Of a stretch of 64,000 nucleotides of DNA, positions 38,430-42,993 are shown piece after piece. The DNA comes from Escherichia virus TH41. The first letter of the stretch is position 1; every line of letters begins with the position of its first letter. The translations under genes and the position numbers were made by a program. The stretch is from the sequence record MT446412.1; one strand, written 5' to 3'. The notes under the pieces were generated by a model that searched no databases, was not told the DNA's origin, and saw only the letters and a program-made list of their open reading frames with translations.

Positions 38430-39809
38430 ATGTCTGACGTTTTAAGTATGATGTCCAAACAGTTCAGTGATTCTATGGGGACCCTTAACCCACGCAGTCT
38501 AAAAGACATTATTGACGTGGAAGCATTGTCATATGCTATCTACACTGTGGAAGGTCGTGCCATTCCAAACATGATTGATGGTTTTAAACCAGTTCACAGA
38601 TTTGTTATGGCGAGAGCATTAGACCTGGCTCGTGGTGATAAGAATAAATTCCATAAGGTTGCATCCATTGCAGGTGGCGTAGCTGATTATGGTTATCACC
38701 ATGGCGAAGCATCAGCGGAAGAAGCAACTTCTGGTTTGGTCGCAACATATAAAAATGAATATCCTATGTTTGATGGGCAAGGTAACTTTGGTTCCAGAAT
38801 GGTTCCAGAAGCATCATCAGCTCGTTATGTATTCGCAAGGGTTTCAAAGAACTTTTACAACTTGTTTAAGGATACAGAATATGCTCCGGTCCATCCTGAT
38901 GAAGAACATAAGCCTCCTGCTTTTTATCTTCCTGTTATTCCTACTGTATTACTTAACGCCACTTCTGGGATTGCTGTTGGCTTCGCTACTGATATCCTTC
39001 CTCATTCGTTCCAGGACGTCAAGGAAGCTGTTAAAGCTATCGTGGAAGGTCGTGAGCCGGTTGCTCCGAAAGTAAAATATCCAGAATTCCGTGGTAAAGT
39101 TGTTGAGCTGGAAGAGCCTGGTAAGTATGAACTTCACGGCACATACAAAATGACCTCAAGGACTCAAATGGAAATTACTGAAATCCCGGTCCAATGGAAC
39201 CTGGAAAAATATACAAGTAAAATCCTGGACCCACTGGAAGAGAAAGGTTTTATCACCTGGAAAGATAACTGCGGCGAGCATGGTTTTGGGTTTAAGATTA
39301 AATTCCGCAAAGAATACAAGTTGGATGGCACTGAAGAAGAGAATCATGAGAAAATCATGAAAGACTTTGGTCTGATTGAGAAACTCTCCCAGAACTTAAC
39401 TGTGCTTAATCACAAAGGCAAATTAGCTGAATACACCAACACGCTTGACCTGATTCGCGATTTCGTTGATGTCCGTAAGACCTATGTTCAAGTGCGAATT
39501 GACAGTAAGATTAAAGAAACTGAAGCGGCATTTAAACTGGCCCGGGCAAAAGTCTTCTTTATTAAAGAAGTGATTGATGGTAAGGTTGTTATCCAGGGGA
39601 AACCTCGTAAGAAGTTGATTGAGGAACTCCAGGCGAGTGAAATATATGGCGATTATGCAGAGAAGTTAGTGGCGATGAACATCTACCATATGACCTCTGA
39701 TGAAGCCAAGAAGCTTGCAGACGAAGCAAAGGCTAAGAAAGCTGAGCATGAGTACTGGAAGACAACTGATGTTAAAACTGAATACCTTAATGATTTGGAG
39801 GCTCTATGA
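38430..39809 (+). CDS. 52: DNA topoisomerase II medium subunit gp52 (GyrA-like)
   Basis: 459 aa; breakage-reunion domain blocks; size and position as T4 gp52. Confidence 0.93.
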   Translation: MSDVLSMMSKQFSDSMGTLNPRSLKDIIDVEALSYAIYTVEGRAIPNMIDGFKPVHRFVMARALDLARGDKNKFHKVASIAGGVADYGYHHGEASAEEATSGLVATYKNEYPMFDGQGNFGSRMVPEASSARYVFARVSKNFYNLFKDTEYAPVHPDEEHKPPAFYLPVIPTVLLNATSGIAVGFATDILPHSFQDVKEAVKAIVEGREPVAPKVKYPEFRGKVVELEEPGKYELHGTYKMTSRTQMEITEIPVQWNLEKYTSKILDPLEEKGFITWKDNCGEHGFGFKIKFRKEYKLDGTEEENHEKIMKDFGLIEKLSQNLTVLNHKGKLAEYTNTLDLIRDFVDVRKTYVQVRIDSKIKETEAAFKLARAKVFFIKEVIDGKVVIQGKPRKKLIEELQASEIYGDYAEKLVAMNIYHMTSDEAKKLADEAKAKKAEHEYWKTTDVKTEYLNDLEAL

Positions 39810-39901
39810 GTTTTGGAGTTGAGTTTGCATTGCTTTGTATTTTTGCGGCAATCGCAGGTGTGATTGTTGGTATGTTTATTGGCAATAAGATAGATAAAGA
39901 C

Positions 39902-39926
39902 TAGGACCCTTCGGGGTCCTTTTTAT
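39902..39926 (+). terminator. intrinsic terminator (TTCG tetraloop)
   Basis: AGGACCC-TTCG-GGGTCCT followed by TTTTT. Confidence 0.7.
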
Positions 39927-39938
39927 TTTAAAAAAGTA

Positions 39939-39968
39939 GTGTACAAGTCCCTTGACCTGATGCATAAT
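39939..39968 (+). promoter_or_regulatory. early promoter cassette
   Basis: GTGTACA, 17 nt, CATAAT; leader CCATACTGAGTT. Confidence 0.6.
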
Positions 39969-40017
39969 GATTCCATACTGAGTTACACAATGAATCACAA
40001 AAACTTTGGAGAATAAA

Positions 40018-40235: not shown

Positions 40236-40844
40236 GTGAACAAGTTAAATTATATCGTTAAATGCTCCCAGAATGCTCTACATGAGACTGATGTTAATGC
40301 TCTGGTGTTTGTATACAAAAACAACTTCGTGCGTCCTGAGGTTGTTTTAGGCCAGCAGAACACGTCAATTGATAGCGTGCAGACATTGTTGAATAACAAC
40401 TATGTTGAAGCTTCTGGTGATGGTTTGATGGTTACAGAAAAAGGTGTTGACCTTATTCTGGATGCAGCTGAACTTTGGGCAAATGAAAATAATCCTGACC
40501 TTCTGGAAGTGAAGAAGACAAGAACAAAACGCGGTGTGACTGATGAAATGGAAGCGACTGCAGAATATATCAAAGAGCAATTGTTGTCTATTGGTATTGA
40601 CTTTAAGAGCATTTCAGAAGACCGCAGCAATCTGATTGTGAAGTTCAAGCGTGTCAAGACATTAAAACAGATTGATGTTCGTCGTGATGGTCAGATTCGC
40701 GTGCATGCGTATAATACTGAACAAAAGATAGTAAAACAGTTTACAGACGTGGGATTTAGCGTTAAAGTAGGTGGATTGAATACCTACATTGACAATCATA
40801 TGTCAACTGAAAACATTCAACATGTTATTAACATCTTAAAGTGA
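40236..40844 (+). CDS. motA: middle-transcription activator MotA
   Basis: 202 aa, GTG start; ASGDGLMVTEKGVDLI and C-terminal QFTDVGFSVKVGG blocks resemble T4 MotA. Confidence 0.75.
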   Translation: MNKLNYIVKCSQNALHETDVNALVFVYKNNFVRPEVVLGQQNTSIDSVQTLLNNNYVEASGDGLMVTEKGVDLILDAAELWANENNPDLLEVKKTRTKRGVTDEMEATAEYIKEQLLSIGIDFKSISEDRSNLIVKFKRVKTLKQIDVRRDGQIRVHAYNTEQKIVKQFTDVGFSVKVGGLNTYIDNHMSTENIQHVINILK

Positions 40845-40851
40845 GGAAATT

Positions 40852-41184
40852 ATGAATAAGCTGAATATTGTTAATGAATTGCGTGCTTGTGTAGAACCCA
40901 CTCAAGAGGGTTGGGATGTTTGGTATCATGGCGCTTACCTTGGGACTATTGTCAAGGTCAAAGCTGGTCAGTATCTTATCCATCGCCAGGATGATGCAGT
41001 AGCTCCATTTGGTGCTCGCAAGAACTTCATGGCGGCGATTGGTGCCTTTGTTCCAGCAGCATATGAAGTCTATAAAGCTGACTATAAAGAATACCTGGAA
41101 TCACAACCAGTTATTCGCTCAATTGGTGTTAATAAAGCTCAACAGAAAAGTCTGTGGCAACGTGTTAAAGGTTGGTTCAAATGA
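40852..41184 (+). CDS. hypothetical protein (110 aa)
   Basis: ORF. Confidence 0.5.
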   Translation: MNKLNIVNELRACVEPTQEGWDVWYHGAYLGTIVKVKAGQYLIHRQDDAVAPFGARKNFMAAIGAFVPAAYEVYKADYKEYLESQPVIRSIGVNKAQQKSLWQRVKGWFK

Positions 41185-41519
41185 TTCCTATGGAACTAAA
41201 TTGGGATGGCGAAGGTCATTCCCTTAAATTGATTGAAGAACAACGTAACGCTTGGGATGAGCGCTGTGCCCTGGTGAATGGTATTAAGAAAACTTATCAA
41301 CTTAACCTCCAGATTGATAATGTTACTCTTGAATTTGGTATGCAGCTATTGCGATTTCTTGAGCTTATTTTTACGGAAAAAGTGAATATAACTTCGTATG
41401 GCGAAGGCAAAACAGTTGATATTAAATTATCATCCTATTATAAAGGTGATTTAATTGAAACCGCCGCTAAAATTCAAGAATTCGCTAAAGATAACGGTTA
41501 TAAGGTGATTTTCAAATGA
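41172..41519 (+). CDS. hypothetical protein (115 aa)
   Basis: ORF. Confidence 0.5.
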
Positions 41520-42127
41520 ATCCATTAAAAGGTAAAGCGTTATCCTTTAAAGACCGTATGGCCTTGTTAGATAAAGCTCTTTCTCGGGAGACTCCTGAAA
41601 GTCTCGCTGCTAAATTACATGCATACGGTGATTACACCGAATATAATGAAGAAGGTAATTGTGAAATGAATCCGTTTATCACTCGTTTAGAAATGTTACC
41701 AGCACCAGAATCGCGTGAAACCCCCAAAAGCCTCGCTGAAAAATTTAAAGCACATGGATACACATGCGATGAAAAAGATATTCTGGAAGAAGTCCCAGAA
41801 ATCTGTTGGCAGATTGCACATTGGAATAACAATGAAAAATATCAGCGACGGATTGTATGTGCCGCCAACCGATTTAAGTTAAAAGATGGTGGGACTCTGG
41901 TTATTCCTGGTGCCAGACATTATTCCAAGGATATGGCAGAAGTGCTTGACCAAGTAAGTGATAAACTTGTGTCAGACCATGTTTGTGGTGTTAATCAAGG
42001 ATTCATTGACCAGTACAGCAATTACTGGACCCGCGAAGAAGCAATGATTATTGCGACTTATGCAAATCAAGTGCGTATTGAACGTGGCGGTAGTGAAAAA
42101 GAACTTTATTCAGAGGACCTTTATTAA
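41516..42127 (+). CDS. hypothetical protein (203 aa) with internal tandem repeat
   Basis: [16 protein letters not shown] / [16 protein letters not shown] repeated N-terminally. Confidence 0.5.
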
Positions 42128-42405
42128 TGAACCTTAAACAACTCCAGATTGATGCAATCGAAACCCATATCAATCATATCAAACGTCTGAACACTATGAT
42201 GGAAGACAACTGGGGAACTTATGTTAACCAGCCGGCTTGGGATGCTTTAGACCATGAATATATAAAGGATATTAGTGATAACACGTATAGAGTTAGAGAA
42301 GGTCTGAAACCCTTCCTACGTGATATGTATATTGCAACTAATAAAGAAATTATCAGTTCTCTTGAATATCAATTAAGGAAATTGCATGAACAATCTGGTA
42401 GCTAA
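42127..42405 (+). CDS. hypothetical protein (92 aa)
   Basis: ORF. Confidence 0.5.
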   Translation: MNLKQLQIDAIETHINHIKRLNTMMEDNWGTYVNQPAWDALDHEYIKDISDNTYRVREGLKPFLRDMYIATNKEIISSLEYQLRKLHEQSGS

Positions 42406-42717: not shown

Positions 42718-42993
42718 ATGACTAAATTTGAAATCGTTTCTGAAATTGTTACTATAACTTCAATTTTGATTAAAACCGACCGGGAAGATATTACGATGAA
42801 GCGCGATGTGTTTATCGCGTTTTTGAATGAGTTGGGATTGAGAAATGAGAATGGGAATGAGTTAAACAATGTATCGTTTAACAAGTTGTTTAAAAGTTTA
42901 TCTGAAGATGAAATTGAACAAATTATTGAACAATTTAACGAAGGATTCGAAGATATACACCGTTATCTTATGATGTATACCTCCGGATTCTAA
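42718..42993 (+). CDS. asiA: anti-sigma-70 factor AsiA
   Basis: 91 aa; ITSILIK..REDI..FIAFLNE..QFNEGFEDIHRYLMMYT matches T4 AsiA. Confidence 0.85.
   Translation: MTKFEIVSEIVTITSILIKTDREDITMKRDVFIAFLNELGLRNENGNELNNVSFNKLFKSLSEDEIEQIIEQFNEGFEDIHRYLMMYTSGF

Follow-up and report, generated by a model that had tools for sequence, protein, structure and literature searches.

Arn of phage T4 is a DNA mimic that inhibits McrBC. Other phage products take the place of an antitoxin and thereby keep a defence toxin silent, among them Dmd of T4 (acting against RnlA and LsoA), the pseudo-ToxI of PhiTE, and TifA of T4 (acting against ToxN). To our knowledge, neither Dmd nor TifA is homologous to the antitoxin it replaces. 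The defence system CmdTAC, also named PD-T4-9, is directed against T-even phages and consists of the ADP-ribosyltransferase CmdT, which modifies mRNA, the antitoxin CmdA, and the SecB-like chaperone CmdC, which senses the T4 capsid protein (PMC9519451, PMC11618068). The proven counter-defence gene arn belongs to a cluster that forms a single transcription unit in T2, and the function of the genes arn.1 to arn.4 is unknown according to a preprint of June 2026 (bioRxiv 10.64898/2026.06.19.733364). Here we consider the gene arn.3 in a stretch of 64,000 nucleotides (nt) from Escherichia virus TH41 (MT446412.1), a T4-like phage of the genus Gaprivervirus; this whole stretch is called the window below. 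The N-terminal module of Arn.3 proves to be related to the antitoxin CmdA, and in this phage it occurs twice. A literature search yielded no paper on arn.3 apart from the preprint, and no paper reporting homology between Arn.3 and CmdA.

The gene (41516-42127, plus strand) starts with ATG and encodes 203 amino acids followed by a stop codon. The protein matches phrog_839 (E = 3.6e-76), and its exact sequence carries a precomputed assignment to PF26092, a family named T4_Y16D. Protein XLZ23826.1 of Escherichia phage EAWsc9 is 99.5% identical to it. A location between motA and asiA, in the interval of the arn genes of T4, had been proposed in the original prediction, which was made from the sequence alone. 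This location is confirmed by Pfam matches of both flanking genes and by the annotation of phages RB7, VR5 and VR26, where the gene between arn.4 and arn.2 is called arn.3 or asiA.4; the same position of arn.3 in the motA-asiA interval is seen in 12 BASEL phages. We regard it as secure, by synteny and sequence similarity, that the gene is the orthologue of T4 arn.3 (asiA.4, UniProt Y16D_BPT4). The doubled arn.3 is thus a variant of a known but uncharacterised family with no function on record. Searches of the whole protein against Pfam (in a set without the PF26092 model), NCBIfam and the PDB sequences gave no significant match, and so none to a characterised housekeeping protein.

Architecture of Arn.3

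Normal members of the family have 153-162 amino acids and a single N-terminal unit of one of two allelic types, type A (VR5, MX01, IME281) or type B (T4, RB7). The protein considered here contains two related units of approximately 45 amino acids, each starting with MNP. Copy 1, of type A (residues 1 to about 45; 41516-41651, plus strand), is identical to the N-terminus of VR5 Arn.3 at 42 of 46 positions, and its DNA is approximately 93% identical to that of the sister Gaprivervirus UPEC01. Copy 2 is of type B and together with a linker covers residues 51 to about 93 (41666-41794, plus strand); 39 of 49 positions are identical to the N-terminus of RB7 Arn.3. The rest of the protein (residues from about 94 to 203; 41795-42124, plus strand) is a domain of mixed alpha/beta structure that forms the core of PF26092. 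Copy 2 and the C-terminal domain are collinear with the entire 153-residue T4-type protein, with about 80% identity over residues 51-203. The difference from T4 Arn.3 is therefore the extra 50 N-terminal residues with the VR5-type allele.

The two repeated peptides of 16 amino acids that had been noticed initially are residues 23-38 and 66-81. They are identical at 11 of 16 positions and lie 43 residues apart, in agreement with the spacing of about 40 proposed for them. The repeat is real: the Smith-Waterman score of residues 1-50 against residues 51-100 is 66, and none of 2000 composition-preserving shuffles reaches it (mean 19.7, standard deviation 3.9, maximum 47). Two direct repeats are retained in the DNA, 41582-41628 with 41711-41757 (70% identity over 47 nt) and 41502-41526 with 41652-41676 (84% identity over 25 nt). 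The latter spans the Shine-Dalgarno box and the ATG codon, so that the repeated unit includes the translation start region.

Homology to the antitoxin CmdA

The helix pair of copy 1 (residues 9-40; 41540-41635, plus strand) was identified as CmdA-like by PADLOC, BLASTP, tblastn, shuffling and structure prediction. In PADLOC, residues 9-38 match positions 2-31 of the 77 positions of the profile PD-T4-9_B (E = 2.5e-10). Seven other family members with type A modules match the same profile at E-values from 1e-9 to 3e-6, and the T4-type proteins score only about 0.01.

For a direct comparison, the first codons of cmdA were read from primers in the supplement of PMC11618068 (CTT TCC TTT GAA CAA AGA ATG GCC, that is, LSFEQRMA). 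The 54 nt around the cmdA start were rebuilt, and three E. coli genomes with the locus were found. In E. coli N2250 cmdTAC lies in a P2-like prophage, and its products of 192, 77 and 129 amino acids match PD-T4-9_A, PD-T4-9_B and PD-T4-9_C at 4e-97, 3e-38 and 7e-61, respectively. Its CmdA reads MLSFEQRMALLNKALQQYNPESLYEKLSSYPAYGPT...ELDLAA. BLASTP aligns residues 9-40 of Arn.3 with residues 2-33 of this protein (LSFEQRMALLNKALQQYNPESLYEKLSSYPAY), with 19 identical positions of 32 (59%, E = 2e-9). Two helices are predicted in both proteins. The first 40 or so residues are also the best-conserved part of CmdA among eight variants.

The strength of the similarity depends on the allele. Against five CmdA variants, copy 1 has 19-21 identical positions of 29-32 aligned, with z-scores of 13-16 relative to shuffled sequences; the T4 type B consensus has 11-17 of 30-46 (z = 7-8), and copy 2 has 10-16 of 30-46 (z = 3-5). 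Copy 1 is the sole significant match to CmdA in the window (tblastn, E = 1.9e-7). From these alignments, we consider the homology of the module to the conserved N-terminal helix pair of CmdA to be secure. The anatomy of Arn.3 and this homology, taken jointly, are very likely to be correct.

The similarity is limited to the helix pair. Unlike CmdA, Arn.3 has no chaperone-addiction tail, no LAA degron for ClpXP, and no PAYGPTIVSYEL segment. In the place of the tail it has a folded domain of 110 amino acids, which is absent from CmdA, and it ends with ...YSEDLY. It is encoded in a lytic T4-like genome and has neither CmdT nor a SecB-like gene next to it; the adjacent genes are similar to arn.4, SP18 gp271 and arn.2. 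Scanning the neighbouring open reading frames (ORFs) with PADLOC produced no significant match and none to components of PD-T4-9. Since the tail, the degron and the CmdT or CmdC neighbour are all missing, Arn.3 is not a member of the CmdA family.

Other routes to CmdA were unproductive. A homology search for CmdA with the 46-residue module returned one fragment only, and nothing was returned by tblastn for CmdA against plasmids or by a blastn search of E. coli genomes with the DNA of the module. A scan of the GTDB genomes with an alignment of four sequences gave no confirmed match. On the other hand, an internal CmdA-like helix pair (residues 105-132, PADLOC 2.7e-9) was found in a 320-residue protein (phrog_11133) of Klebsiella phage PCCM_KpP_22, a Jedunavirus (L006:2689-3651). 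An acidic and proline-rich stretch comes after the helix pair in this protein, and two ORFs further downstream there is an exonuclease gene. The 320-residue protein is a third, unrelated host of the module.

A tblastn search with the module gave matches in 30 Vibrio phage records. Schizotequatrovirus genomes have been listed as containing "a component of the PD-T4-9 defense system" (ISME J, PMC12028318), and this component may be the same module. As for the complete system, the N2250 locus (L019:1943-3156) lies between P2 replication and DinI-like genes and the portal gene. cmdTAC of the ECOR22 type is detectable by blastn in three of 5,426 complete E. coli genomes, and thus is rare there despite being called widely distributed.

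Origin of the tandem repeat

Alignment of the DNA with UPEC01, and a four-way alignment with VR5, VR26 and RB7, show that the tandem repeat was created by an in-frame insertion of 123 nt, or 41 codons (41652-41774, plus strand). The first nucleotides of the insertion, AAGGTAATTGTGAAATG, are a copy of the start region at the 5' end of the gene (AAGGTGATTTTCAAATG), and Met51 therefore has a ribosome-binding site of its own: a Shine-Dalgarno-like AAGGTA, a spacer of 9 nt, and ATG (41652-41668, plus strand). The T4-type proteins begin (MNPF) exactly at the equivalent of Met51. Initiation at this codon could yield a T4-like product of 153 amino acids, if the putative internal start is used.

The sequences flanking the insertion are approximately 93% identical to those of sister phages, whereas no other phage sequence exceeds 78% identity to the inserted copy. 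The nearest are Tequatrovirus alleles, and a search for a close donor found none above 78% identity. Thus the insert was recombined from an unsampled diverged allele and does not result from a recent duplication in place. Judging from these alignments, we regard as secure that two different alleles of the module, the VR5-type followed by the T4-type, were stacked by in-frame recombination in a small clade. The doubled form is present in four of the 1,523 phage records with the family (EAWsc9, TH40, ECML-359, pEC-M719-6WT.2), and these four genomes are nearly identical (at least 99%).

The locus is mosaic in another respect as well. In other relatives of Arn.3 the first 21 or so residues of the upstream ORF (41172-41519) are fused directly before the module; the peptide has 14 of 22 positions identical in P0021 (z = 15), and in P0045 and P0023 the z-scores are 10 and 8, respectively. 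These fusions indicate that the 5' ends of genes in the arn cluster undergo shuffling.

Structure and C-terminal domain

Structure prediction had been suggested as a check of the original prediction. An AlphaFold2 model was built with an alignment of 103 sequences, and it consists of helical units followed by a confident C-terminal domain. Copy 1 is modelled as a pair of helices (residues 11-23 and 27-36) with a predicted local distance difference test score (pLDDT) of 88-91. The model shows disorder in the stretch that joins the two copies (residues 42-63). Copy 2 is again helical (helices 55-60, 70-79 and 86-92), with a lower confidence (pLDDT of 60-78). The C-terminal domain (residues from about 95 to 203) contains both beta-strands and helices, and its pLDDT is 93-98. 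The model of the single-module relative P0012 is similar, with pLDDT of 83-85 in the hairpin and 67-76 in the linker. Its predicted template modelling score (pTM) of 0.73 means that, although the hairpin itself is well defined, its position relative to the C-terminal domain is not modelled with confidence.

The family of the C-terminal domain is large: a search of 1.84 billion representatives gave 2,932 clusters at E <= 1e-3. Among its members are many stand-alone proteins of 83-110 amino acids, and some others have unannotated N-terminal regions joined to the domain. Ten long fusion proteins with the domain were scanned against Pfam and gave no match, and the gene contexts of two distant family members gave no functional clue. 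It is secure that PF26092 is a large uncharacterised phage family without a relative of solved fold. Thirteen residues are invariant and all are present here: R111, A116, A117, R134, H135, Q161, G162, F163, D165, Y170, R173, Q185 and S199. The pattern of invariant polar residues suggests a ligand-binding or catalytic site.

The original prediction had described the C-terminal domain as containing cysteine and histidine residues. This is literally true but not meaningful, as only C97 (in at least 90% of sequences) and H135 (invariant) are conserved, and the protein has no metal-binding motif of the CxxC type. C115 is replaced by serine in several members, and C156 is not conserved. Two candidate identities were rejected. 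A zinc-binding Cys/His domain would need a conserved set of three or four such ligands, and there is none; a CmdT-like domain was discarded after hhalign of the family against CmdT, which gave a probability of 0.15%.

Arn.3 types and sensitivity to CmdTAC

CmdTAC restricts ten of the twelve Tevenvirinae of the BASEL collection, the exceptions being Bas35 and Bas38 (PMC11618068). We extracted Arn.3 from all twelve phages and compared its type with the efficiencies of plating (EOP) on cmdTAC from the source data of that paper. Four phages have an A-like Arn.3: Bas35 (EOP 0.85; PADLOC against PD-T4-9_B 3.4e-6), Bas38 (0.32; 6e-7), Bas36 (5.3e-6; 5.6e-8) and Bas46 (3.3e-5; 1.9e-7). The other eight carry Arn.3 of type B, that is, the T4 type; they are restricted, with EOP values seen from 5.6e-7 to 1.25e-4, and the PADLOC score, measured for Bas37, is approximately 0.01. 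Thus both phages that escape have the CmdA-like type, and all eight T4-type phages are restricted. The simple rule that a CmdA-like module means escape from CmdTAC was rejected, because Bas36 and Bas46 carry the module and are restricted. No residue pattern separates the escapers from the non-escapers among the twelve Arn.3 proteins.

Neither of the two escapers, Bas35 (WilhelmHis, L007) and Bas38 (AugustSocin, L008), is the closest relative of the other. Their arn loci differ: an additional ORF of 156 nt separates arn.3 from arn.4 in Bas35, and the ndd gene is split in Bas38.

Possible function of the module

The reading that we favour is that the Arn.3 module serves as a handle for toxins of the CmdT type, similar to an antitoxin but stable and free of a degron, and that its coverage is widened by two alleles or isoforms. 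We put the probability of this reading at roughly 0.3. The helix pair would be what is left of CmdA to contact CmdT, since the rest of the antitoxin consists of the disordered tail for chaperone addiction, at whose end lies the LAA degron for ClpXP. The helix pair of Arn.3 would bind toxins of the CmdT type, or related ones, once the real antitoxin has been degraded. The C-terminal domain would add a second activity, ligand-binding or catalytic. Two alleles, or the presence of both the 203-residue and the 153-residue products, would extend the range of toxin variants covered. The concept of a phage product replacing a labile antitoxin is that known for Dmd, pseudo-ToxI and TifA, and for Arn.3 it is hypothetical; the case for Arn.3 differs from Dmd and TifA in that it is built on sequence homology. 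A stronger and rather unlikely version is that Arn.3 is a piece of CmdA captured by phages that silences the CmdT family of mRNA ADP-ribosyltransferases after loss of the host antitoxin. The diversity of types A, B and A+B would then be the signature of an arms race matching that of CmdA and CmdT, and PF26092 would contribute a new activity, for example, on ADP-ribosylated RNA or on ligands derived from nicotinamide adenine dinucleotide (NAD).

Several observations weigh against antitoxin mimicry. Firstly, Bas36 and Bas46 are restricted by a factor of 10^4 to 10^5 despite having better PADLOC scores than Bas35 and Bas38; therefore, the module is not sufficient against CmdTAC of ECOR22, and the existing plating data already rule out the simplest form of the CmdA-mimicry hypothesis. 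The association between escape and type is itself weak (Fisher one-sided 6/66 = 0.09), and the relatedness of the phages confounds it. In T4, escape mutations have been mapped to alt.-3 and not to arn.3. Secondly, Arn.3 lacks the conserved segment of CmdA located C-terminal to the helices (PAYGPTIVSYEL), and it may be this segment, rather than the helices, that neutralises CmdT; we infer the contact between the helix pair and CmdT from the published architecture. Thirdly, the module may be a general-purpose hairpin, as it also occurs inside the unrelated Jedunavirus protein. The module is missing from about half of the phage records in which the C-terminal domain occurs (805 versus 1,523), and hence this domain has a function of its own. 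Finally, the 203-residue fusion is a predicted product.

About equally likely to antitoxin mimicry is the possibility that the helix pair is a generic structural element, either a dimerisation or regulatory hairpin or a lid of PF26092, with no link to CmdT. The resemblance to CmdA would then have arisen by shuffling of modules among phages and prophage hot spots, the activity would reside in the C-terminal domain, and the duplication would be nearly neutral. This agrees with the size of the stand-alone C-terminal family and its invariant polar residues, with the many records that have the domain and no module, with the Jedunavirus protein, with the fusions of the upstream-ORF peptide to the module in other phages, and with the restriction of Bas36 and Bas46. 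However, identity of 59-66% over 32 residues is high for a chance association when it connects a T-even phage protein with the antitoxin of a defence against T-even phages, and the matched stretch is the most conserved part of CmdA. As regards a lid, the pTM of 0.73 gives no sign of one tightly docked within the molecule.

Another tentative explanation concerns the repeat itself and is compatible with both antitoxin mimicry and a generic hairpin. The repeat may be a scar of recombination with no selected function. Initiation at Met51 would give an ordinary Arn.3 of 153 amino acids, and the first 50 codons would be a leftover allele that is open by chance or a tolerated extension. Indeed, the insertion brought a complete start region (AAGGTAATTGTGAAATG compared to AAGGTGATTTTCAAATG), the T4-type proteins have their first residue precisely at the position of Met51, and the model predicts disorder between the two copies. 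Only four genomes, at least 99% identical, have the doubled form, which leaves no time over which selection could be tested. On the other hand, the insertion keeps the frame with exactly 41 codons, and the first start has a good Shine-Dalgarno box and is translationally coupled through the ATGA overlap. Comparison of copy 1 with UPEC01 reveals about five synonymous and four non-synonymous changes, which is compatible with purifying selection, although the number of sites is very small. Furthermore, the insert is at most 78% identical to any known allele, and hence the arrangement or its donor is not brand new.

An activity like that of the neighbours Arn, AsiA and MotA, namely inhibition of McrBC-type restriction or binding to RNA polymerase, both of which the original prediction had offered for testing, is very improbable: nothing speaks for it except the position in the arn-motA-asiA cluster and the co-transcription with arn in T2, nothing links the protein to RNA polymerase, there is no similarity to Arn (BLASTP E = 5.2), AsiA or MotA, arn.3 is kept although the window contains no homologue of Arn (tblastn best E = 0.86), and the family extends to Vi1-like phages, jumbo phages and siphoviruses that have no hydroxymethylcytosine DNA. 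Arn.3 and Arn share the gene cluster, the transcript and the stem of the name.

Gene context

The topoisomerase gene 52 (38430-39809) is followed by motA (40236-40844; Pfam MotA_activ and MotCF), the arn.4 homologue (40852-41184), and an ORF similar to SP18 gp271 (41172-41519, plus strand; 115 amino acids, phrog_14178). The ATG codon of arn.3 overlaps the TGA codon of the latter (ATGA), and the TAA codon of arn.3 overlaps the ATG codon of the arn.2 homologue (42127-42405, plus strand). The product of this gene has 92 amino acids and is 38% identical to RB7 Arn.2 (E = 4e-24). Further downstream are asiA (42718-42993; Pfam AsiA) and, on the minus strand starting from 42990, the holin gene t and the genes for gp38 and gp37.

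The annotation of this region in GenBank is not reliable. In phage records the label "anti-restriction nuclease" is widely and wrongly attached to homologues of arn.2, arn.3 and arn.4. This is the label of 42127-42405 in the nearest GenBank record, and the gene encodes the Arn.2 homologue, which has no similarity to Arn. In the case of the Arn.3 homologues, the label is name drift from the locus name arn.3. The product of 41172-41519 is called "sporulation protein YqfC" in EAWsc9, and this label looks spurious.

A strong bidirectional hairpin terminator (AGGACCC-TTCG-GGGTCCT followed by a T-run; 39903-39920) was observed 3' of gene 52 and a small ORF (39806-39904), and promoter-like hexamers at 39940-39979. 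The transcription unit that comprises motA, the arn cluster and asiA probably starts here. Sites resembling the MotA box, WWTGCTTNA, occur 31 times in the whole window, compared to 19 +/- 4 expected (none of 100 shuffles reaches 31), as expected for a T4-like genome. None of the sites matching this strict pattern lies between 39800 and 43100, and hence none points to a middle promoter just upstream of arn.4 or arn.3. The region immediately upstream of arn.3 has no MotA box and no clear promoter.

Conclusions

The doubled allele by itself is a curiosity, but it shows how two alleles of a short binding module can come to lie in tandem through recombination at the 5' end of a gene. The PF26092 domain, with a confidently predicted fold and no solved relative, is a reasonable target for structural and biochemical work. 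The homology to CmdA would also account for the PD-T4-9 "component" that defence-finding pipelines report in phage genomes, probably a false-positive defence call that may mark a counter-defence gene. Finally, the link to CmdA ties arn.3 to a specific and well-characterised defence against T-even phages, and it provides the first testable functional lead for this gene.

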